DNA of 64,000 bases, taken from positions 318,591 to 382,590 of the forward strand of contig CAVPSB010000015.1 in the NCBI GenBank assembly GCA_963708025.1. Reading direction: 5' to 3'. Shown piece after piece: positions 8,186-23,376 of the stretch. The notes below the pieces were generated by a model. That model saw only the letters and a program-made list of their open reading frames with translations. It did not search any database and had not been told where the DNA came from. The number at the start of each line of letters is the position of its first letter. Within the stretch, counting starts at the first letter, position 1. The position numbers and the translations under genes are program-made. The DNA is from an uncultured Candidatus Rokubacteria bacterium. Its GTDB lineage: Bacteria > Methylomirabilota > Methylomirabilia > Rokubacteriales > DASRDR01.

Positions 8186-9766
8186 ATTAAGCGCGTCCTG
8201 GTCACCGACTCCCTCCAGGAGGTGGGCGTCGAGGCGCTCCGCGCCGAGGGCCTCGAGGTGGAGGTGATCCCCACGCTGCCGCCGTCCGAGCTGGCCCGGC
8301 GGATCGGGCCGTACGCCGGGCTCGTCGTACGGAGCGCGACCAGGGTCACGGCGGAGGTCATCGAGGCGGCGGCCGCCCTCGAGGTGGTGGGCCGGGCCGG
8401 CGTCGGGCTGGACAACGTCGACGTCGAGGCCGCGACCCGGCGCGGCGTCGTCTGCATGAACACGCCGGGCGGGAACACGATCGCCGCCGCCGAGCACACC
8501 ATGGCCCTTCTCCTCGCGACGGCCCGCAAGCTCCCCCAGGCCCACGCGCACCTCAAGGGCGGCAAGTGGGAGCGGGAGCGGTTCCTGGGGACCGAGGTCT
8601 ACGGCAAGACGCTCGGGGTCGTCGGGCTCGGGCGGATCGGCGCCGAGGTGGCGCGCCGCGCCCAGGGCTTCGCGATGACCGTCATCGCCTACGACCCCTA
8701 CCTGGGCGAGGAGGTGGCCCGCCGTCTGGGCGTCGAGCTGGTCGATCTCGACACGCTCTACCGACGGGCCGACTTCATCACGGTGCACGTGCCCCTCACC
8801 CGGGACACCCGGGCGCTCATCGGCGCCGCCGAGCTGGCGAAGATGAAGGACGGCGTGCGTCTCGTCAACTGCGCGCGCGGCGGCATCGTGGACGAGGCGG
8901 CGCTGGCCGCCGCCGTCCAGTCGGGCAAGGTGGCGGGGGCGGCGCTCGACGTGTTCGAGCGGGAGCCGCCGTGGGGCTCGCCCGTCCTCGACCTGGACCC
9001 GGTGGTGACTACGCCGCACCTGGGAGCCTCCACCGAGGAGGCCCAGACCTCGGTGGCGGTGGCGATCGCCCAGCAGGTCGCCGACCTCCTCGTGCGCGGG
9101 GTCGTCCGGAACGCGGTGAACGCCCCCAGCGTGGACCCGGAGCTCTTGAAGGAGCTGGCCCCGTATCTCGGCTTGAGCCAGAAGCTCGGGTCGTTCCTGG
9201 GTCAGGTCGCGCGCGGCCGCACGAGCGCGGTGACGATCCAGTACGCCGGGGAGGTGGCCGGGCTCGGCGTGCAGCCCCTGACGGTCACGCTCCTCCGCGG
9301 ACTCCTGGCCGTGATCCTGGAGGAGAACGTGACCGACGTGAACGCGCCGTACCTGGCCCGCCAGCGCGGGATCCGGGTCGTCGAGTCCCGGACCCCGGTC
9401 AGCGAGGACTTCGCGAGCCTCGTCTCGGCGGAGGTGACCACCGATGCCGGGACCTGGCAGGTCGCCGGCGCGCTCTTCCACCGGAAGGAGCCGCGCATCG
9501 TCCAGGTGGACGGCTACGGGATGGAGGCCCACCCGTCCGGCTGGATGCTCGTCTTCTCGAACGACGACGTCCCCGGTGTGATCGGCCGGATCGGCACCCT
9601 GTTCGGCGCCCACGCGATCAACATCGCGGGCATGCAGCTCGGCCGCTCGGCCCCGGGCGGCCGCGCGGTCTCGATCCTGAACCTCGACAGCCCGGTGCCG
9701 GATCCGATCCTCGCCGAGATCCGGGCCCTGCCGAACATCCGCTCGGCGACCCTCGTCCGGCTCTAG
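8186..9766 (+). CDS. serA: D-3-phosphoglycerate dehydrogenase with ASB/ACT domains; apparent ATT start
   Basis: VRSATRV, RAGVGLDN, GLGRIG, NCARGG, TPHLGAST, C-terminal DVPGVIG; N-terminal (I)KRVLVTDSL lies upstream of the ORF-track GTG. Confidence 0.95.
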   Translation: MKRVLVTDSLQEVGVEALRAEGLEVEVIPTLPPSELARRIGPYAGLVVRSATRVTAEVIEAAAALEVVGRAGVGLDNVDVEAATRRGVVCMNTPGGNTIAAAEHTMALLLATARKLPQAHAHLKGGKWERERFLGTEVYGKTLGVVGLGRIGAEVARRAQGFAMTVIAYDPYLGEEVARRLGVELVDLDTLYRRADFITVHVPLTRDTRALIGAAELAKMKDGVRLVNCARGGIVDEAALAAAVQSGKVAGAALDVFEREPPWGSPVLDLDPVVTTPHLGASTEEAQTSVAVAIAQQVADLLVRGVVRNAVNAPSVDPELLKELAPYLGLSQKLGSFLGQVARGRTSAVTIQYAGEVAGLGVQPLTVTLLRGLLAVILEENVTDVNAPYLARQRGIRVVESRTPVSEDFASLVSAEVTTDAGTWQVAGALFHRKEPRIVQVDGYGMEAHPSGWMLVFSNDDVPGVIGRIGTLFGAHAINIAGMQLGRSAPGGRAVSILNLDSPVPDPILAEIRALPNIRSATLVRL

Positions 9767-13435: not shown

Positions 13436-14392
13436 CTACGTGTAGCTGAAGCCCATCGTCCGGCAGTGATAGTACAGCCCGCCGTCCTGGACGATGAGGA
13501 AGAGGGCCAGCCCGTCACCCTCGTTGTGGTGCGAGTGCATCCGGGTGGGCGGGGTGATCATGACCGCGTTCGGCTCCCAGTCCACCCGCTCCCCGTCGAT
13601 CAGCGAGTAGCAGCGCTCACCGGCCACGACCAGCGTGACGGCCACCGCGTTGTGCCGGTGGGCGCGCTGGGTCTCGCCGGGCAGGAGCGAGTTCATGGCC
13701 AGCGTGTACGTGGGGGTCGTGGTGCGCGCCTGCTCGAGGGCGGCGTTCCCCAGGTTGACCGACTTCCCCGGCATGCTGGCCCCGCGCGGGTCGAGGTAGA
13801 CGGCCCGGAGCTGCCGCCGGATCTCGGCCGCCGGGTAGTGCGCCGCCCGGATCGGCGGGTCGCCGGGCGCCGGCGACTGGCAGCGCTCGAAGGCCAGCGC
13901 CGGCTCGTTGGTGGCGATCCACAGTACCGTGTCCGTCGTGGCGTGGTGCCGGACCGTGCCGCCGCCGGGCAGGGCGAAGACGTCCCCGGCCTCCCAGGCG
14001 ATCGACTCGCGGCCGTCGACCCCGAAGCTGGTCGTGCCGGCGCCGCGGATCGCGTAGTGGAGCTCGGTGCTGGCGACGAAGCGCGTCTCCAGGCGCTCGC
14101 CCCCCCGGATGCGGGCGTAGCGCGCGAGGATCAGCGGCGTGGTGGCCGGCGACTCGAGCTGGAGGAGGCCGCTCAGGTCGAGGGGAACGAGGCCGGTCGG
14201 CGCCGCGGGGTCGAGGGCCCGGTCGTGCTCCGTCCGGAAGACGTGGGCCGGGATCGCCGGGCGCTTGATGTCGAAGCCGTCCAGGGAGGAGAGATAGCGC
14301 GCGTTGGCGGCGTAGGGGCTCGGCGTGCGGTCCGGCCCGGTCTCCACGCCGAGCAGCTCCCGGAGCCCGAGCTCGTCGATGGTCCTCGCCAT
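13436..14392 (-). CDS. Bicupin protein, gentisate 1,2-dioxygenase-like
   Basis: QRAHRHNAVAV and TPPTRMHSHHN cupin motifs. Confidence 0.75.
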   Translation of the reverse strand: MARTIDELGLRELLGVETGPDRTPSPYAANARYLSSLDGFDIKRPAIPAHVFRTEHDRALDPAAPTGLVPLDLSGLLQLESPATTPLILARYARIRGGERLETRFVASTELHYAIRGAGTTSFGVDGRESIAWEAGDVFALPGGGTVRHHATTDTVLWIATNEPALAFERCQSPAPGDPPIRAAHYPAAEIRRQLRAVYLDPRGASMPGKSVNLGNAALEQARTTTPTYTLAMNSLLPGETQRAHRHNAVAVTLVVAGERCYSLIDGERVDWEPNAVMITPPTRMHSHHNEGDGLALFLIVQDGGLYYHCRTMGFSYT

Positions 14393-14424
14393 GGCGGGTT
14401 CCTCCTCGCGTGTCGGTCTGAGCG

Positions 14425-14453
14425 ATGCTAGCCCGCGGCCCCGAGAGCGTCAA
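14425..14453 (-). promoter_or_regulatory. sigma70 promoter for cupin gene
   Basis: Minus strand TTGACG-17 nt-TAGCAT upstream of GAGGAGG RBS. Confidence 0.6.
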
Positions 14454-14874
14454 GCCGACGGACTCGAGCGCGACGACCCGGCGGCCTCGAGTCATCGCGG
14501 CGCTCGCGCTCGCGCTGGCCGCCGCGCCGGTGCTCCAGGCGGCGAGCCTGGCCGGGCTCCGGCTGCTGAACTTCGCGCCGGACCGCCCGTGGAACTACGT
14601 CGCCTACGGCCTGGCGGCCCCCTACGTCGCGGTCCTGCTCTGGCGGCGCCACCCGCGGGCGCGCTTCGCGGCCTACGTGTTCCTGACCCACGAGACCGTC
14701 CGCGGTCTCCACTTCCGACGCTGGGACGCCGTGCTCGTCGCCGTCGCCGGCATCCTTCTCCTCCAGCTTCCCTCGGCCCGCCGCTGGGTGCCGTCGCTGC
14801 GCCCCGCCGAGATCCGCGCCCGGCTGCCGTGGCGCCGGCGGCACCCGGAAGCGTCAAGCTCCGACACGGCCTGA
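14425..14874 (+). CDS. Small hypothetical membrane protein (start uncertain)
   Basis: Several hydrophobic segments, GC3-rich codon usage. Confidence 0.55.
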   Translation: MLARGPESVKPTDSSATTRRPRVIAALALALAAAPVLQAASLAGLRLLNFAPDRPWNYVAYGLAAPYVAVLLWRRHPRARFAAYVFLTHETVRGLHFRRWDAVLVAVAGILLLQLPSARRWVPSLRPAEIRARLPWRRRHPEASSSDTA

Positions 14875-15704: not shown

Positions 15705-16826
15705 ATGGCGCGAGCCAAAGGCTCCGGGCTGGCGGCGGCTGACCCGCGCGTCGGGCAGACGCTCCGCTTCGACGGCCAGGACTGGGAAGTCACCGACCAC
15801 TCGAGCTACTGGAACGACGCGGGATACCGCGTCATGGAGTGGTGCTGCGAGGCCGAGGACGTCGAGGGCTACCTCCTCAAGGAGATCAAGGACGGCGAGC
15901 CGACCCGCTGGTTCTTCACGCGAAAGGTCCCGCGCGAGGCGGTGACCGGACTGGGCGATAGCCGGCCCGCGAGCCCGCCGCCGGCGCTCACCTTCGAGAG
16001 CCGATCCTACCGGCACGCCGAGACGAACGAAGGCACCTACGAGGAGGAGCCGGGGCAGCGCGTCCCGAAGACCACGTGGGAGTACTGGGACGACGGCCGC
16101 CAGCGGAACCTCGCCGTCGAGCTGTGGCCGGACGGCCGTGTCAACTGCTACCACGGCGCCTACATCGAGCCCGGCCAGGTCACGCCGGTCGCCGGCGCGG
16201 AGGGCTCCGGCGACCGCGAGGAAGGGAGCGCGACCCCGGGGCGGAACGTCGCCGCGGCCGGGCTAGCCGCGCTGGCCGGGGCGGCGGCGGCCAGGGCTGC
16301 GAAAGGGGGGAAGACCGGGGGCGGGGGCGGCAACCCGTTCATCGCGGCGATGGTGTTCTTCCCCCTGGTCTACGTCTTCCCCTTCTTCGTCGGCCGGCCC
16401 TTCGACGAGTGCCTGGCGGTGGCCCTGCCGCTCGCGCTGGTCGGGGGCTGGCTCTTCGCGCTGCGCGCGCCCCGGGCGGCGGGCCTCGCCTTCCTGGGCA
16501 TGGCGCTGGGGCTCTACCTGTTCTGGCGATTCCCGCCGCTGACGAGCCCGTACGGGCTGGCCGCGGTGCTCGGGGGCCCGACCGTCCTGGCGGTGTGCGC
16601 GCGCGGCGAGGCCGCCAGGAAGGGGCGGCGACCCGTGCTCTACGCGGCGGCCGTCGCGGTGGCGCTGCCCGCGGTTCTGGTCGGGCTCCACCGCTACTTC
16701 TGGTACGCCCCCGGCCCCCACACGCTCGACCAGCTCGGCCTCGCGCTCGGGCCGGCCGCGCTGGGCGGGCTCGCCGCCCTCGTGGTGGCGAGCGTGGTGC
16801 TGGTGGGCGAGACCACCGACGCCTGA
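15705..16826 (+). CDS. DUF4178-like N-terminal domain plus multi-pass membrane C-terminus
   Basis: Acidic/Trp-rich beta domain (VGQTLRFDG...WEYWDD...LAVELW) then ~6 hydrophobic helices; TTGACA at 15652 upstream. Confidence 0.7.
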   Translation: MARAKGSGLAAADPRVGQTLRFDGQDWEVTDHSSYWNDAGYRVMEWCCEAEDVEGYLLKEIKDGEPTRWFFTRKVPREAVTGLGDSRPASPPPALTFESRSYRHAETNEGTYEEEPGQRVPKTTWEYWDDGRQRNLAVELWPDGRVNCYHGAYIEPGQVTPVAGAEGSGDREEGSATPGRNVAAAGLAALAGAAAARAAKGGKTGGGGGNPFIAAMVFFPLVYVFPFFVGRPFDECLAVALPLALVGGWLFALRAPRAAGLAFLGMALGLYLFWRFPPLTSPYGLAAVLGGPTVLAVCARGEAARKGRRPVLYAAAVAVALPAVLVGLHRYFWYAPGPHTLDQLGLALGPAALGGLAALVVASVVLVGETTDA

Positions 16827-16880
16827 GCGACCCGGGGCCATGGTCGGCGTGCCGGAACTGTCCGGGGCGGGGGGAGGGCG

Positions 16881-19037
16881 GTGAGCCAGGTCTTCCTCGA
16901 CAGTCGCGACGGCGGTCTCCGACTCTACCTGAACGGTGAGCTCCAGTTCGACAGCCGGGACGAGCGGCTCTATCACGAGCCACTGGCCCTCGTTCCCACC
17001 GCGCTGGCTCGCGCGCGGGCGGCGGCGCGGGAGCTGCGAGTCCTGATCCTGGGAGGCGGCGACGGCCTGGCGCTGCGGGAGGCGCTCCGGGTCCCCGGGG
17101 TCGCCGAGGCGCACGTGGTCGATCGCGATCCCGACGTCCTGCGCCTCGGCGCCGGCTCGCTGGCGGCCCTCAACGCGGGCGCCTTCCGGGATCCCCGGAC
17201 GCGCGTCCACGTCCGGGACGCGCGCGAGTTCCTCGGCCGGGCCCGGGACTTCGACGTGGTGATCTGTGACCTCACCTACCCGGGTGACGTCGCGGGCGCC
17301 GAGCTCCTCAGCGTTCCGCTGTTCCGGAAGGCGCGGGCCGCGCTGCGACCCGGCGGGGTGCTGAGCGTGAACGCCGTCTCCCCGGAGGAGACGCCCCAGG
17401 CCTTCGGCTGCGTCGGCCGCACGCTCGGCGCCGCCGGGCTGGCCGCCGTCCCATACGCGTTCATGCTGCCCTCGTTCTTCGCCGAGGGCTACGGCCGGTG
17501 GGGCTTCTTTTTCGCCTCCTCCCGGACCATCGGGACGCGTGAGCTCCGGCGGCTCCCCCTGCCGGCGGGCGCCGGAATCACGCGGCCGCTCCTCCTCGAA
17601 GGCCTGCGCCTGCCGGTGGCGGCGGGCCCCGCGATGCGTGTGGCCCCCAACCGGAGCACCGAGCTGCTCTACTACATCTACAACGCGACGCCGCTCGCCT
17701 GGGATCCCCCGTGGCGTCCGTTCCGCTTCGCCGCCTCCGCGCTCGGGGTCGGCCCGCGCCCGACCGCCGCTCAGGGCTTCGCCCGCTGGCTGCGGGCCCC
17801 GGCCGGCCGTCGGACGCTCACCGAGCTGCTGGCCTGCGTGCCCCTGGCCCAGCGCGGCCAGACCCGCGAGGCGTTTCTCGAGTGGAGCGAGCACGCCGCG
17901 GTCCTCTTCCGCGAGGTGGACCTCCGGGCGTTCCTCGAGCGGACGCTCCGGCGGGCGGCGGAGCTGCCCCGCGCCTGGGTCCGCGAGCTGCGCCGGCTCC
18001 GGGACCGCATCCGGGCCGGGCTCCCGTCGATGGAGGAGCTGCTCGAGCAGGCCTACCGCGTCTTCGCGATCTACCTGCTCGTGCTCCTGCTGGCCAACCT
18101 GTTCTTCCCCGACAACCTGTACGCGAAGGGCGGGAGCTACTCCAGCGGCCGATCGAGCTTCTCGTCCAGCTCCAGCTCGGATTCCGGCCCGTTCCACGGG
18201 TTCAGCTTCAGCGATCCGGGACAGCGCTACGGCCCGTACCGGCACCGCGCGTTCTACTCCCGGGGCTACGGCGTCACCCCGAGCACCGGCGCCGACCGCG
18301 TCTACGACGCCGAGGGGCGGGAGTACCCGGCCCTCCGCTTCGCCCTCACCGACCCCGTGGGCGGACGGAAGCCGGTGCCCTCGCTGCTCGCGCTGAGCCC
18401 CGAGCTTCAGCTCCTCGAGACGGGGGCCATCGCCTACCTGACGGGGCTCGCCGGCTATCAGGCCCTGCTCGAGCCCGGGCGACTCCGCACCCTGGACGCG
18501 AGCGGCCGCGACGTGCTGGCGCTGGCGCCGCCCACGCGCCTCCAGGCCGACGCCGCCAGCCGGATCGCCCAGCAGGGCCCGCTGATCGACACGGCGCTGG
18601 TCGAGCACGAGCGCTGGCTCGAGTGGACGCGCTGGCGCGCGGTGATCGCGCCGGGGCGGGGGTCGGACTCCGAGCTGGCGGGACTCCAGGCGACCCGGAA
18701 GGCCGTGGATGCGGCCCGCGAGGTCTGGCAGCGTCCGGGGACGGCGCGCGCGTTCGACCCGCCGGCCGGCTGGGTCACGCTGTTTCCCGGCGTCTACCTC
18801 GAGCCGGCGAGGATCGCCGCCCAGGATCCGACCATCGTCCTGGTCAACCCCGACGGGAGCCAGAGCCGGCAGCCCGTCGGGCCGCCGGGTTGACTCACCG
18901 ACGAGGATCGCTTTCTCTTCCGCCTGCTCCACCGGCGCCTCACCGAGGGCAAGGACCAGTCGCTCAGCGTCCCGGTGACGCGCTGGATCGAGGCGCACGG
19001 GGCGGCCCTCGGCGTGAAGCCGGCCCCGCGCTCGTGA
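16881..19037 (+). CDS. Spermidine-synthase-like aminopropyltransferase fused to long C-terminal region; in-frame TGA at 18891-18893
   Basis: LYLNGELQF, YHEPL, LILGGGDG, FDVVICD; frame stays open 47 codons past the TGA and ends in a TGATG overlap with the next gene. Confidence 0.8.
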
Positions 19038-20095
19038 TGCGGATCGCCCCGCTCGACAGCCGGCACCGCGAGGCCTGGGACCGGCTGGTCGCGACCCATC
19101 CGGCATCCGGCTTCATGCAGTCGTGGGCGTGGTCGTGCTTCAAGGAGCTGGAAGGCTACCGGGTCGTGCGGCTGGGCGTCTTCGAGGGGGAGGCGCTCGC
19201 CGGCGGGGCGATCGGCTACGCGTTCCCTTCGCCGGCCGAGGCCGCGCTGCTGGCCGTGCCCGACGGGCCGCTCCTCGACTGGGACGCGCCCACCGCCGGC
19301 GCCGCTTTCGAGGCGCTGGTGCGCGCCCTCCGGCGATCGCCGGCGGGCCGGCGGGCGGTGGCGGTGCGCGTCGAGCCGCGGCTCCCGCTCGGGGCGGGGC
19401 CGGAGCGGGTGCCGGCGCCGCTCCGCGGCCTGGCCCGCGCGCCCGTGGACCTGGTCCCCGAGGAGACCCTCGAGGTCGACCTGGGACCGGAGGACCTCAT
19501 GCTGGCGCGGATGAAGCCGAAGGGGCGCTACAACGCCCGCCTGGCCTGGCGCCGCGGTGTCGAGGTGGTGAGCTCGTCCGACCCCGGCGACGTGCACTCG
19601 CTCCACTTCGTCCTGGAGCAGACCGCCGGCTACCAGGACTTCCTCCTCGAGCCCAAGAGCTTCTTCATCAACCTGGCCGGGGCGCTCATGCCGGCCATGG
19701 CCCGGCTGGCCTTCGCCCGCTACAAGGGCATCACGCTGGCCGCGGCGCTGACCGTGCGCCACGGCGCGACCGTGACGTACCTCTACGGCGGGCACCTCCC
19801 GCTGTTCCCCGACGTGATGGCTAGCCATGCGCTCCACTGGCACGTCATGCGGGAGGCGGCGGCCGAGGGCGCCCGCGTCTACGACCTCTACGGTTACGCG
19901 CCGCCCGACCGGCCCGGCCATCCCTACGCCGGCTTCTCGCGCTTCAAGGAGAAGCTGGGCGGGCGCCACGTGCGCCGGATCGGCTCTCACGACGTCGTCT
20001 TCTACGATCGGCTGGCCGACGCCGCCCTCCGCGCGATCCGGTCGGCATCGGCGGTGCGGAGGCGCGCCGCCTCGGAGAGATCGGAGAGAACATGA
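19037..20095 (+). CDS. FemABX-family tRNA-dependent aminoacyltransferase-like protein
   Basis: FMQSWAW, MKPKGRYN, YLYGG, YDLYG, FSRFKEKLGG. Confidence 0.85.
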   Translation: MRIAPLDSRHREAWDRLVATHPASGFMQSWAWSCFKELEGYRVVRLGVFEGEALAGGAIGYAFPSPAEAALLAVPDGPLLDWDAPTAGAAFEALVRALRRSPAGRRAVAVRVEPRLPLGAGPERVPAPLRGLARAPVDLVPEETLEVDLGPEDLMLARMKPKGRYNARLAWRRGVEVVSSSDPGDVHSLHFVLEQTAGYQDFLLEPKSFFINLAGALMPAMARLAFARYKGITLAAALTVRHGATVTYLYGGHLPLFPDVMASHALHWHVMREAAAEGARVYDLYGYAPPDRPGHPYAGFSRFKEKLGGRHVRRIGSHDVVFYDRLADAALRAIRSASAVRRRAASERSERT

Positions 20096-20931
20096 GCTAC
20101 GGGCTGTCAGCCGTCACCTATCTCGTCCTGTCCTTCGGGATCTGCTGGATCGGGAAGGTGGCCTACGGCCTCTTTCATCCCCGCGTCCGGGTCGACCGGG
20201 AGATGACCGCCCGCGACAACCTCGCGTTCGCGGTGCCGATGGGCGCCTACTACCTCGGCATTCTCATCGTGATGGGGGCCCCGCTCTCGGGGCAGCCCCG
20301 GGGGGATTTCGTGCGGGAGGCGCTCTCGGTACTGGCGTGGGGCGTCCTGGCCATGGTGCTGCTGAACGTCGCCTCGCTCGCCAACCGGCGGTTCCTGTTC
20401 GGCGGCATCGACCTGGCGGGGGAGATCCTCGAGCGGACCAACGTGGCGGCCGGGATCCTGGTCGGCGGCTCGCACATCGCCAACGCCCTCCTGATCCTCG
20501 GGGCCCTGGCCGACGAGGGCGGCCTCCTGCCGGCGGCCGTCTTCTGGCTGTACGCCCAGGTCCTCCTGACGCTGGCCGCGATCGCCTTCCAGCGCCTCGT
20601 CCGCTGCGACCTCGCCGCCGAGATCCGGCGGGGGAACCAGGCGCTCGCGCTCGCGGTCGCCGGGGCGCTCATCGGCATCGGCAACATCCTGCGCATGTCG
20701 ATCAGCGGGCCCTTCGAGGGCTGGTCGGCGGGCTTCGCCGCCTCGACCGGCTACGCGGTGGCCGGCCTCGTGCTCCTCTTCGTGGTCCGGCAGCTCGCCG
20801 ACTGGGTGCTCCTGCCGGGGGTGACGATCCGGCAGGAGGTCCTGGAGCAGGAGGTGCCGAACGTCGGCGTCGGCTACCTCGAGGCGGTCTTCTACCTGGG
20901 GGCGTCGCTGCTGGTCGGCTGGAGCCTGTAG
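20092..20931 (+). CDS. Tandem DUF350 membrane protein
   Basis: Repeated units VDREMTARDNLAFA, LAGEILERTNVAAG, LAAEIRRGNQALA, IRQEVLEQEVPNVGVG. Confidence 0.85.
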   Translation: MSYGLSAVTYLVLSFGICWIGKVAYGLFHPRVRVDREMTARDNLAFAVPMGAYYLGILIVMGAPLSGQPRGDFVREALSVLAWGVLAMVLLNVASLANRRFLFGGIDLAGEILERTNVAAGILVGGSHIANALLILGALADEGGLLPAAVFWLYAQVLLTLAAIAFQRLVRCDLAAEIRRGNQALALAVAGALIGIGNILRMSISGPFEGWSAGFAASTGYAVAGLVLLFVVRQLADWVLLPGVTIRQEVLEQEVPNVGVGYLEAVFYLGASLLVGWSL

Positions 20932-21710: not shown

Positions 21711-23270
21711 CTACCGCTCGAGGTCTCGCAGCACCACGGTGGCCGCGTTGCGGCCGGGCAGGCCGCTGACGTACCCCCCGGGGTGGCTGCCGCTCCCGCA
21801 GAGGTAGAGGCTCCCGACCGGCATCCGGTGGCCACCGAACCCCGGGATCGGCCGGAGCGAGAAGAGCTGCTCGAGGGTCAGGTCCCCGTGGAAGATGTTC
21901 CCGCCGGTGATGTTGAAGCGCGCCTCGATGTCGGGGGGCACCAGGACCATCCAGTCGCGGATCACGTCCCGGATGTTGGGGGCGTGCTCGGCCAGCGTGT
22001 CGAAGACGTCCTCCACGAACGCGCGCCGCCGCTCGGGCGTCCAGGGACCATCGGCCGGCTGGTACGGCACCCAGTCGCCGTACACCGTCATCGTGTGCTT
22101 TCCGGGGGGCGCCAGCCCGGGATCGGTGATCGACTGGAAGTGGAGGATCGCGTACGGCCGCCGGGGGACCCGACCCGCCCGCGCGTCCCGGTAGGCCGTC
22201 TCCAGGTACTCGAGGCTCGGGGAGATGACGACGCCGCCGCGGAGGTACGGCGTCTGGTCGCCGGGCGGCAACGCCCGGAAGCGCGGCAAGGCGTCCAGCG
22301 CGCAGTTGATCTTGTAGGAGCAGCCGGTCGTGCGATAGCGCCGGAGGTCGGCGACCACGTCGGGATCGAGCGCCTGCTCGCCGACGAGCCCCAGCAGCGT
22401 GTGGCGGGGGTCGGCGTTGGAGAGCACGACCCGGGCCGGCACCTCTTCCCCGCCGGCGAGCGCGACCCCGGTCGCCGCGCCATCCCTGATCAGCACGCGC
22501 TCGACGGTGACGCCGGTCCGGATCTCCCCGCCGTGCCGGCGCAGCGTGGTGGCGAGCGCCTGGCTGAGCCCGCCCATGCCGCCGCGGATGTACCCGAAGC
22601 ACCCCAGGTGGTCGTCCACGCGCGCGGCCAGGTGGTGGGCCTTCGAGTACGCCGACCCGGGCGTGGACGGCCCGACGAACGTGCCCACGGCGCCGCCGAA
22701 GGCGAGGAGTCCCTTGACGCCCTCCGACTCGAAGTACGCGTCGACCAGGTCCCGGGTGGTGCCCAGGATGAACCGGGCCAGCAGGCGCTCGCCGTCCGCC
22801 CCGTGGAATGCTCGCGCGAAGTCGCCCCACGTCCAGTCGTCGGCCGGACGCAGGAAGTGATCGCGCAGGATCGCTCCCACCCGGGCGCCGTCAGCCTCGA
22901 AGCGCGGCCAGGCCTCGGCGTCGCGCCGCGACCACCGGGCCACGTCGCGGACCGTCCGCTCGAGGTCGGGGTAGACGACCAGGTGTCGGCCGTCCGGGAA
23001 GACGCCGGTGAACTGCGGATCGCGGACGTACGACGCGAAGCCCGCCTCCCGGAGTCCGAGCTCCTGCACGATCTCCGGCTGTAGCATGCCGACCGTGTAC
23101 GACGCCACGCTCAGGCGGAAGCCCGGGAACAGCTCCTCGGTCACGCAGGCGCCGCCTACCAGCTCGCGGCGCTCCAGCACCACGACCGAGAGCCCGGCCC
23201 TGGCGAGATAGCACGCCGCCGTCAGCCCGTTGTGCCCGCCCCCCACCACGACCGCGTCATAGCGCTTCAT
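21711..23270 (-). CDS. Phytoene-dehydrogenase-like FAD oxidoreductase
   Basis: VVGGGHNGL, GGMGGL, GNIFHG, GSGSHPGG; TATAAT on minus strand at 23309-23314. Confidence 0.9.
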   Translation of the reverse strand: MKRYDAVVVGGGHNGLTAACYLARAGLSVVVLERRELVGGACVTEELFPGFRLSVASYTVGMLQPEIVQELGLREAGFASYVRDPQFTGVFPDGRHLVVYPDLERTVRDVARWSRRDAEAWPRFEADGARVGAILRDHFLRPADDWTWGDFARAFHGADGERLLARFILGTTRDLVDAYFESEGVKGLLAFGGAVGTFVGPSTPGSAYSKAHHLAARVDDHLGCFGYIRGGMGGLSQALATTLRRHGGEIRTGVTVERVLIRDGAATGVALAGGEEVPARVVLSNADPRHTLLGLVGEQALDPDVVADLRRYRTTGCSYKINCALDALPRFRALPPGDQTPYLRGGVVISPSLEYLETAYRDARAGRVPRRPYAILHFQSITDPGLAPPGKHTMTVYGDWVPYQPADGPWTPERRRAFVEDVFDTLAEHAPNIRDVIRDWMVLVPPDIEARFNITGGNIFHGDLTLEQLFSLRPIPGFGGHRMPVGSLYLCGSGSHPGGYVSGLPGRNAATVVLRDLER

Positions 23271-23376
23271 CCCCGGCCTCCTCCCTTGCCCGGCTCCGGC
23301 GCAGCCCAATTATAGGGGCGAGGTCCGAGAAGTGTCGGCCGAAGTCCGGCGGCATGCCTTGGAGCTCGGCGCGCGG

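Follow-up and report, generated by a model that had tools for sequence, protein, structure and literature searches.

A four-gene cassette in a Rokubacteria genome

We analysed a stretch of 64,000 nucleotides (nt) from an uncultured Candidatus Rokubacteria bacterium (assembly GCA_963708025.1, contig CAVPSB010000015.1, positions 318,591 to 382,590 of the forward strand), in which four co-oriented genes encode a DUF4178 membrane protein, a protein resembling spermidine synthase (SpeE-like), a transferase of the FemABX family (Fem) and a DUF350 membrane protein. This whole stretch is called the window here, and positions are counted from its first letter. The host genome comprises 8.17 Mb in 49 contigs, and the closest relatives of the window's cassette lie in Methylomirabilota/Rokubacteria metagenome-assembled genomes (MAGs). 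Lengths of proteins are in amino acids (aa).

15705-16826, + strand: DUF4178 membrane protein, 373 aa (Pfam PF13785, E 3.8e-14; hydropathy; AlphaFold2)
16881-19037, + strand: spermidine-synthase-like gene to its ancestral end, 718 codons (PF01564; relatives continuous through the stop); the window's version ends at 18893 (670 aa)
16881-17540, + strand: aminopropyltransferase-like catalytic domain of that gene, residues 1-220 (invariant columns in 25 and 40 sequences)
17052-17066, + strand: GGGDG motif of the SpeE-like catalytic domain
17268-17282, + strand: D-L-T-Y-P motif of the SpeE-like catalytic domain
18048-18131, + strand: single hydrophobic helix followed by ANL..PD..YAKG, residues 390-417 (hydropathy and conservation)
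18891-18893, + strand: in-frame TGA within the SpeE-like gene, whose last 47 codons lie behind it
18894-19037, + strand: C-terminal tail (LTDEDRFLF...) behind the stop, its own TGA overlapping the Fem ATG (tblastn)
19037-20095, + strand: FemX-like transferase, predicted to depend on aminoacyl-tRNA, 352 aa (Pfam PF02388 and PF13480)
19142-19144, 19649-19651 and 19943-19948, + strand: Fem residues K36, E205 and F303-K304
20092-20931, + strand: tandem double DUF350 membrane protein, 279 aa, about eight hydrophobic segments (Pfam PF03994 in two stretches, E 2.8e-45)

The original prediction, made from the letters of the sequence, had placed four co-oriented genes here, and the open reading frames (ORFs), third-position GC and Pfam all agree with it. 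G+C in the window is 73% and third-position GC tracks real frames, reaching 0.83-1.00 in those of all four cassette genes. The Spermine_synth family matches residues 29-204 of the 670 (E 7.6e-23; 81.5 bits against a cut-off of 22.9), and the Fem product matches both FemAB and Acetyltransf_6 (E 4.5e-27; 95.3 bits against the PF02388 cut-off of 24). Between the DUF4178 stop and the GTG start of the SpeE-like gene lie 54 nt, with GGAGGG preceding the start. The ancestral SpeE-like stop at 19035-19037 overlaps the Fem ATG as TGATG, and the Fem stop overlaps the DUF350 start as ATGA; the predicted coupling of the last three genes through overlapping stop and start codons is therefore present when the SpeE-like frame is read to 19037. 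We take the four genes to form one cassette whose last three members would have been translationally coupled until the internal TGA appeared. It represents a Fem-bearing form of the membrane modules that combine DUF4178, DUF350 and spermidine-synthase-like proteins.

The Fem gene and the SpeE-like gene keep company across phyla

A search with one genome per species returned 513 relatives of Fem, and we examined the best 80 loci, scoring neighbouring genes by tblastn within 7 kb of Fem. The SpeE-like catalytic domain is encoded at 73 of the 80 loci and the SpeE-like C-terminal part at 64; DUF4178 accompanies Fem at 58, DUF350 at 56 and a homologue of S-adenosylmethionine (AdoMet) decarboxylase (AdoMet_dc) at 41. 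The SpeE-like gene lies directly upstream of Fem on the same strand in 72 of 73 cases, the order being permuted in the remaining one (L031), and the distance from the SpeE-like stop to the Fem start has a median of 49 nt (69 loci). Because the arrangement recurs in 73 of the 80 loci of the closest Fem relatives, it is far beyond chance. Pfam confirmed the domain calls in 102 ORFs from 11 of these loci, with AdoMet_dc at four, and found neither GSP_synth nor PspA in those 11. The carriers belong to at least six phyla and include Methylomirabilota, many Cyanobacteria, Obscuribacterales, Chloroflexota (Herpetosiphon, Thermomicrobiales), Omnitrophota, Armatimonadota, Acidobacteriota (Bryobacterales), Syntrophobacteraceae and Geomonas. 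The conservation of Fem in this context, on which the original prediction hinged, thus holds across phyla.

Among the seven loci without a SpeE-like gene, the contig ends within 1.3 kb of Fem in four (L004, L059, L063, L076), one retains only a SpeE-like fragment (L048), and two are truly without the gene at the locus (L011, L024). We searched five of these genomes for a SpeE-like gene elsewhere. Three (L011, L024, L076) contain a long match to the SpeE-like subfamily, that of L024 being fragmented and interrupted by a stop; the L048 genome contains only the fragment, and the L059 genome gave no match to the subfamily.

The association also holds in the reverse direction. A SpeE-like profile of 423 positions was used for a second search, and 80 loci among the matches listed were examined. 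Seven SpeE-like genes among these matches cover the whole profile, which takes in the helical region and the hydrophobic helix, and Fem is present at all seven. The other 73, related through the catalytic domain only, have Fem at none of their loci, an AdoMet_dc homologue at 37 and DUF350 at 23, again among the matches listed. The two groups also differ in build: at least four hydrophobic segments are encoded upstream in the same open frame in 71 of the 73 catalytic-only genes listed versus none of the seven whole-profile genes.

In two proteins the enzymes are joined. These 788-aa SpeE-like-Fem fusions (P0121 and P0136) are 96% identical (757/788, no gaps), and their SpeE-like part runs to ...PDAGYAKG, with the Fem domain directly after the hydrophobic helix and PD..YAKG. 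The existence of the fusion in two such variants indicates that it is not a one-off sequencing artefact.

Individual loci show further variation. Calothrix sp. NIES-2100 has two copies of the cassette (L019 and L046), one with AdoMet_dc directly after Fem and no DUF350, the other with DUF350. An Armatimonadaceae locus encodes a PIG-L family deacetylase after Fem (L082:7994-8815), where other loci carry DUF350 or AdoMet_dc. A locus labelled as a Rhizobium MAG (L061) groups with Pseudanabaena, and one labelled Elusimicrobia (L008) falls inside the Methylomirabilota clade; either wrong bins or recent transfers would account for these placements.

The SpeE-like gene of the window is interrupted by a recent or spurious stop

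Past the TGA at 18891-18893 the same frame stays coding-like for 47 codons, up to the TGA at 19035-19037, with a third-position GC of 0.92 in the 180-nt window from 18920. The tail behind the stop is 46-65% identical by tblastn to six relatives (L003-L008), in the same frame as the upstream part, and all six have a sense codon at the position of the TGA (T, A, A, Q, M and G). We compared contigs from four public runs over 18700-19100. Every contig that covers 18891 reads C rather than T (two contigs from X1 and one each from X2, X3 and X10), giving CGA (Arg), and in the 169-nt contig from X10 this C is the sole difference from the window. Because all covering contigs read C, the ancestral codon is taken to be CGA. 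The T at 18891 would be either a true, fresh nonsense mutation or an assembly error. Selenocysteine or programmed read-through was considered and rejected, given that the position varies among relatives (T/A/A/Q/M/G) and that the near-identical contigs have CGA.

The Fem protein has an altered acceptor pocket

The window's Fem is the only FemAB-family gene found in its genome. The model built from a 50-sequence alignment has a predicted local distance difference test (pLDDT) score of 95.2, and its best Foldseek matches are S. aureus FemX (template modelling score, TM-score, 0.82; 6snr), W. viridescens FemX (FemX_Wv; 0.75-0.79) and FemA, with the streptothrisamine-acylating enzymes Sbb17/Sba18 (0.66) and the MprF synthase domain (0.52) lower down. 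Profile comparison gives the same order, matching S. aureus FemX at E 1.7e-36 and FemX_Wv at E 2.3e-20, aligned end to end. The profile, the double fold of the GCN5-related N-acetyltransferase type (double-GNAT) and the catalytic Phe-Lys pair all place the protein in FemABX (PF02388): F303-K304, invariant in 50 of 50 clade sequences, align with F304-K305 of FemX_Wv, in which Lys305 is the catalytic residue (PMC12945691, in the part of that paper available), and E113 aligns with Asp108. Aminoacyl-tRNA would accordingly be the donor, by family membership.

The acceptor side differs. According to the passages of the respective papers available to us, the two phosphates and the two D-Ala residues of UDP-MurNAc-pentapeptide are bound in FemX_Wv by Lys36 and Arg211 (PMC2655667), and MurM retains the pair as Lys35 and Arg215 (PMC8280954). 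The cassette proteins keep the Lys and replace the Arg: the Lys36 position is K in 49 and R in one of the 50 clade sequences, and the position of FemX_Wv Arg211 and S. aureus FemX Arg208 is occupied by Glu205, a Glu in 50 of 50. This position is R (six), K (one) or H (one) in eight non-cassette FemAB paralogues, of which Herpetosiphon supplied one and the window's phylum seven; a ninth, fragmentary and without the Phe-Lys pair, was excluded. A quick tree of the 58 rows puts the 50 clade members on one side of a branch, apart from the eight paralogues, with a support of 86 in the Shimodaira-Hasegawa-like approximate likelihood ratio test (SH-aLRT). Such a reversal of charge speaks against an anionic precursor of the wall and in favour of a positively charged group on the acceptor. 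The NCBIfam equivalog for FemX (UDP-MurNAc-pentapeptide-lysine alanyltransferase) scores 24.4 bits against a cut-off of 500, and the PEP-CTERM-associated FemAB model 24.3 bits against 260.35.

These data bear on a rival explanation, namely that Fem branches a peptidoglycan precursor (lipid II or a UDP-MurNAc-peptide), perhaps on a stem-peptide polyamine supplied or extended by the SpeE-like enzyme, so that the product would be a wall decorated with polyamine and amino acid. It would fit the closest solved relatives, the two FemX enzymes, the retention of Lys36, Tyr256 and an aromatic residue for Tyr215 of the FemX_Wv pocket, and the lack of a second FemAB-family gene in the genome. Annotation pipelines also call Fem relatives 'lipid II:glycine glycyltransferase', and peptidoglycan-bound polyamines are known in some diderm Firmicutes. 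Set against it are the exchange of the precursor-binding Arg for Glu in 50 of 50 sequences, where all eight other paralogues have a basic residue, the equivalog scores of 24 bits against cut-offs of 500 and 260, and a distribution (6 of 151 and 10 of 201 genomes, below) that marks the cassette as outside core wall synthesis. Cyanobacteria, which make up most of the carriers, have a wall described as directly cross-linked. We consider this explanation unlikely. With its sporadic occurrence and invariant Glu, the window's Fem would not behave as an ordinary lipid II bridge enzyme, in keeping with the original prediction.

The SpeE-like protein keeps its catalytic residues and has lost an acceptor-site acid

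The best solved relative of the SpeE-like protein is the triamine/agmatine aminopropyltransferase of Thermus thermophilus (E 7.8e-24), and three NCBIfam equivalogs score below their cut-offs (PRK03612, 189 against 472; PRK00811, 101.9 against 260; TIGR00417, 80.2 against 249.55). LQ..DE..YHE, GGGDG, D81 and D130 are invariant or nearly so, with GGGDG, D130 and Y31 present in all of 40 sequences. The GGGDG acid selects decarboxylated S-adenosylmethionine (SAM). In an alignment to T. thermophilus SpeE, D130 and Y31 correspond by the position of their motifs to Asp173 and Tyr79 of human spermidine synthase (SPDS), catalytic residues which, in the part of the source available, position and deprotonate the attacking amine (PMC12812037).

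The second acid of the D-x-x-[DE]-P motif, residue 133, is never acidic in these 40 sequences (Y17, F10, C5, V4, S2, T1, A1). The same position is Asp in 73 of 73 relatives without Fem, those of the type fused to multiple transmembrane (multi-TM) segments, and Glu in the genome's own ordinary SpeE. This second acid binds the far amine of a diamine such as putrescine. An acid of the acceptor site, present both in ordinary SpeE and in the multi-TM type, is missing from the SpeE-like enzyme, and the term 'polyamine' for its acceptor is therefore unproven.

The catalytic domain, before which the window's protein has no hydrophobic segment, is followed by a helical region, one hydrophobic helix, ANL..PD..YAKG and a Ser/Gly-rich stretch. 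N406, D411 and K416 are invariant, and P410 and G417 occur in at least 90%, in 25 sequences from several phyla. Cyanobacterial forms terminate in a second hydrophobic helix; the window's form runs on for about 300 residues without a Pfam match, and no Pfam family was matched by the C-terminal 450 residues as a whole. The Rossmann-fold part of the window's protein (residues 47-213 of the frame at 16881-18890) is matched by the PADLOC model mad2, a methylation-associated defence candidate. A defence reading of this match (E 1.4e-16) was rejected, as it reflects general methyltransferase-fold likeness. Two further places in the genome match Spermine_synth (G000:C19:224365-224823 and G000:C31:310647-311027, in open frames of 1158 and 799 aa); in these the G-loop acid is replaced by Ser or Thr and D-x-x-D-P by EPSNP or EPMPP, so that they are probably not aminopropyltransferases.

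The conserved C-terminal motif invites a second rival explanation, in which the acceptor is a protein: a lysine or N-terminus of a membrane protein (the Lys of the SpeE-like PD..YAKG, DUF4178 or DUF350) would be modified, in the manner of aminoacyl-tRNA protein transferases and of lysine modification of the deoxyhypusine type. All partners are co-encoded membrane proteins, the ANL..PD..YAKG beside the hydrophobic helix holds a lysine invariant across phyla, and loss of the diamine-binding acid fits a non-polyamine acceptor; the double-GNAT fold is reportedly also common to protein-aminoacylating enzymes such as Ate1. Yet the conserved Lys would lie on the far side if the helix spans the membrane, and DUF4178 and DUF350 are dispensable in several lineages. 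We know of no member of the FemAB family proper that acts on proteins. Review passages available to us list only wall precursors and small molecules as acceptors. A protein acceptor seems to us improbable, to about the same degree as a wall precursor.

It is also conceivable that the two genes are neighbours without a shared substrate, the SpeE-like protein serving as a scaffold, a sensor or an ordinary polyamine synthase and Fem performing an unrelated, co-regulated tRNA-dependent job. Neighbourhood alone does not prove a joint pathway, and the genome already has an ordinary pair of AdoMet decarboxylase (AdoMetDC) and SpeE. Against this stand the two-way co-occurrence (73 of 80 in one direction; 7 of 7 versus 0 of 73 in the other, among the matches listed), the fused protein in two variants and the clade-specific acceptor-site substitutions of both enzymes; invariant donor-site and catalytic residues are moreover contrary to a mere scaffold. 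Unconnected roles appear very unlikely to us.

The membrane partners and AdoMet decarboxylase

The DUF4178 protein consists of an N-terminal all-beta domain (approximately residues 15-160, strands within 19-154), a linker and six predicted helices, and its AlphaFold2 model has a pLDDT above 90 over the beta domain and over the helices at 211-372. Across 38 sequences W27, W46, W69, T124, W125, Y127, N135, E139 and Y149 are conserved, and the beta domain has many conserved Trp, Tyr, Asp and Glu residues. Foldseek returned no match to the model at E 0.001 or better, and a wider structure search gave only generic helical matches to residues 187-373, in effect not probing the beta domain.

Three of four cassette-linked AdoMet_dc homologues tested pass the NCBIfam AdoMetDC equivalog cut-off; the fourth ORF, as cut, scores 70.1 against 75.65. 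In the window's genome AdoMet_dc and an ordinary SpeE are encoded 245 nt apart on another contig.

A sporadic module and its relation to GspS-like ligases

The cassette is rare. In a sample of 151 genomes of the window's phylum (which includes two unpublished genomes, G058 and G101, on neither of which any claim rests), 46 have some FemAB match and six have Fem adjoining a tandem DUF350 gene (G000, G079, G084, G104, G107, G116); all six tandem-DUF350 genes in the sample adjoin Fem. A sample of the cyanobacterial phylum contains a Fem orthologue (E 1e-30 or better) in 10 of 201 genomes, and at the same threshold the Fem clade comprises 144 representatives among 1.84 billion proteins. Because it is sporadic yet present in several phyla, the cassette is best seen as an accessory module moved between phyla.

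The original prediction had started from the recurrence of DUF350 and DUF4178 with ligases resembling glutathionylspermidine synthase (GspS-like) and had proposed that Fem stands in for the ATP-grasp enzyme, with mutual exclusivity of the two as the check. The recurrence is stated in the available part of PMC11237479, and we see it in the window's phylum at L181, where DUF4178 occurs with a double GSP_synth and a 130-aa DUF350 match between; at L179 and L180 a 70-aa DUF350 accompanies GSP_synth (Pfam). As to exclusivity, GSP_synth adjoins DUF350 in three of the 151 genomes (G031, G094, G109), all different from the six with Fem beside DUF350, and no locus has both Fem and GSP_synth, a pattern that agrees with the proposal on small counts (six genomes versus three). 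No match to PF03738 (GSP_synth) was found in the window's genome. A GspS profile built from only five sequences, whose uncertain sensitivity gives it little weight, found nothing in the 80 SpeE-like loci among the matches listed. The idea of a stand-in fits the exclusivity, but the DUF350 and SpeE-like genes of the cassette are of the ligase-free type. Because the cassette resembles the ligase-free combination of SpeE-like, eight-transmembrane DUF350 and DUF4178 proteins more than the GspS type, Fem may be an addition rather than a replacement, and 'added' is as apt a word as 'replaced'.

Flanking genes and signals at the locus

The cassette is flanked on one side by the housekeeping genes serA, a HisRS-like gene and purA, along with methyltransferase, cupin and hydrolase genes, and on the other by upp and a flavin amine oxidase gene on the opposite strand. 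This amine oxidase gene (21714-23309, - strand) was considered as a polyamine oxidase partner and rejected: it is divergent, upp intervenes, and it is absent from related loci. In one relative (L003) a cupin gene (2031-2987) and a 149-aa gene of unknown function (8205-8639) stand on either side of the cassette, and their counterparts in the window (13439-14871) are both upstream; the cassette or its neighbours have shifted locally between the two. The window's flanks, examined from 6.9 to 27.9 kb, and 11 related loci revealed neither PspA nor CesT.

A search of the cassette gave no sigma-70-like promoter, two terminator-like sites there are no more numerous than in shuffled sequence, and no tRNA gene was found near it. 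Rfam gave no family at E 1 or better except a chance miRNA match. A plasmid search returned two distant matches only, at 32% identity.

A proposed two-enzyme pathway at the membrane

We tentatively favour a joint membrane pathway that would aminopropylate and aminoacylate one shared amine other than peptidoglycan, a reading that we regard as quite possible while stopping short of calling it probable. It builds on the gene order and coupling, the co-occurrence in both directions across phyla, the fusion, the retained catalytic residues and the two signature substitutions. The two enzymes would tailor one amine-bearing acceptor at the cytoplasmic face of the membrane. First, AdoMet decarboxylase, whose gene adjoins the cassette in half of the relatives but in this genome lies at another place, would supply decarboxylated SAM. 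The SpeE-like enzyme, held at the membrane by its hydrophobic helix, would then aminopropylate an acceptor other than a simple diamine. Third, drawing on aminoacyl-tRNA, the FemX-like enzyme would form an amide between an amino acid and a free amine of that molecule, most likely at the new cationic aminopropyl end, attracted by the clade-specific Glu205. Finally, the double DUF350 protein, with its eight transmembrane segments, and DUF4178, with its aromatic and acidic beta domain, may bind, sense or move the cationic product. The donors are assigned here by family membership, and the shared acceptor, which might be a small polyamine-like molecule or a lipid head group, the order of steps and the roles of the two DUF proteins are conjectural to a greater degree than the gene associations that suggest them.

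Several observations weigh against this pathway. Donor, acceptor and chemistry are all read from sequence, and Fem finds its best matches, in sequence as in fold, among peptidoglycan enzymes, whose precursor pocket it seems to share in part, through Lys36, Tyr256 and the aromatic residue in place of Tyr215. The neighbourhood counts cover the best 80 of 513 Fem relatives. In the window AdoMet_dc is not a neighbour of the cassette, and the 7-kb search around Fem detected none at 39 of the 80 loci. SpeD homologues can moreover be arginine or ornithine decarboxylases (PMC10407285, in the part available). The forms in Herpetosiphon, Obscuribacterales, Bryobacterales and Armatimonadota lack DUF4178 and DUF350, neither of which is therefore obligatory. 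The SpeE-like gene of the window is interrupted by a stop, so that this copy may be impaired, or else the base is an assembly error. Topology poses a further difficulty: a hydrophobic helix that crosses the membrane would leave the C-terminal part of the window's protein (300 residues) outside the cell, and in the fusions it would place Fem outside as well, which questions whether the helix spans at all.

It is tempting to speculate further that the cassette uses tRNA-dependent polyamine chemistry to make a hitherto undescribed kind of molecule: either a cationic head group whose aminopropyl arm bears an amino acid as its cap or, if each enzyme accepts the other's product, a short chain in which aminopropyl and aminoacyl units alternate. 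Attached to a membrane lipid or a carrier, either product would be flipped to the outside by the double DUF350 protein and serve to set envelope charge. We think this version decidedly unlikely, a shade more so than either a wall or a protein acceptor. Were it true, it would be a second, unrelated solution to the task of MprF, and it would provide a substrate for 'polyamine-independent' AdoMet decarboxylases.

Whatever its acceptor, the Fem variant adds a second enzyme of known chemistry, the formation of an amide on a free amine, to the question of what modules of SpeE-like, AdoMetDC, DUF350 and DUF4178 proteins aminopropylate. To our knowledge, few enzymes of the Fem family act outside wall synthesis, and those that do all belong to antibiotic pathways; if the favoured pathway is right, a product bearing both groups would show aminoacyl-tRNA put to a new use, in polyamine or envelope chemistry. 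The label 'lipid II:glycine glycyltransferase' on these proteins is a systematic mis-annotation worth correcting, since the Fem pocket and the neighbouring genes argue otherwise. The signature residues, Glu205 of Fem and residue 133 of the SpeE-like enzyme, are open to point tests, the natural fusion offers another handle, and cultured carriers exist in Tolypothrix tenuis PCC 7101, Calothrix sp. NIES-2100, Herpetosiphon geysericola DSM 7119 and Geomonas sp. Red32.

Comparison with known systems

Iyer et al. (2009) reportedly surveyed the neighbourhoods of Fem-like ligases and may bear on priority. Our full-text searches found no paper linking a Fem enzyme to DUF350, DUF4178 or SpeE-like genes, a prior mention in Li et al. 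2019, Iyer et al. 2009 or the supplements of PMC11237479 being possible; the main text of PMC11237479 contains zero mentions of FemAB. Polyamines are not mentioned in the searched passages of a 2026 review of aminoacyl-tRNA-dependent enzymes.

In fold, the nearest known enzymes are those of the FemX/MurM type (FemX of W. viridescens and S. aureus, FemA), with which the window's Fem shares the double-GNAT fold without a coiled-coil arm, the size of FemX_Wv, the catalytic Phe-Lys, an acid at the place of Asp108 (E113) and Lys36. It differs from them in having Glu for Arg211, in its sporadic occurrence within phyla and in forming a separate clade, the members of which adjoin an aminopropyltransferase-like gene (73/80) and not wall genes. 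In chemistry, the natural-product enzymes PacB, VlmA, DhpH-C, DhpK, Orf11 and Sbb17/Sba18 offer a parallel, as they are described, in the sources available in part, as transferring an amino acid from aminoacyl-tRNA to the amine of a small molecule. These belong to actinomycete antibiotic clusters for which aminopropyltransferase or membrane partners are not described, and they are more distant in sequence than FemX. MprF, an aminoacyl-phosphatidylglycerol synthase and flippase, resembles the lipid version of our proposal in being tRNA-dependent and double-GNAT and in yielding a cationic membrane component, with a polytopic membrane part that moves the product; unlike the proposed pathway, it forms an ester on a hydroxyl, belongs to family DUF2156 and is fused to its own membrane domain, and a lipid acceptor is here only supposed.

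In genomic context the cassette stands close to two kinds of operon. GspS-like/DUF350 clusters of the E. coli yjfL-yjfC type share DUF350, and sometimes DUF4178, beside an amide-forming enzyme that acts on amines, but their enzyme is an ATP-grasp ligase, their DUF350 proteins measure 70-130 aa and are not the tandem double form, and no SpeE-like gene occurs at the three such loci examined (L179-L181). Clusters of a multi-TM-fused spermidine-synthase-like (SpdSyn-like) protein with AdoMetDC, DUF350 (YjfL) and DUF4178 share more: a membrane-anchored SpeE-like protein, an eight-transmembrane DUF350, DUF4178 and frequently AdoMet_dc. Li et al. 2019 (Biochem J) is said to describe the same kind of cluster. 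In the cassette the N-terminal membrane domain is absent, a C-terminal helical region, hydrophobic helix and PD..YAKG taking its place, the second acid of D-x-x-D-P is lost and a Fem gene is added. The available part of PMC11237479 describes both kinds of operon and treats the multi-TM-fused clusters as a second group of PspA-linked operons; of the features of that group, our cassette has the eight-transmembrane DUF350, DUF4178 and SpeE-like genes in one operon and lacks the N-terminal seven-transmembrane transporter-like fusion and the CesT/Tir-PspA dyad. The Fem cassette points to an undescribed modification, combining an amino acid with an aminopropyl group, that would be made at the membrane.

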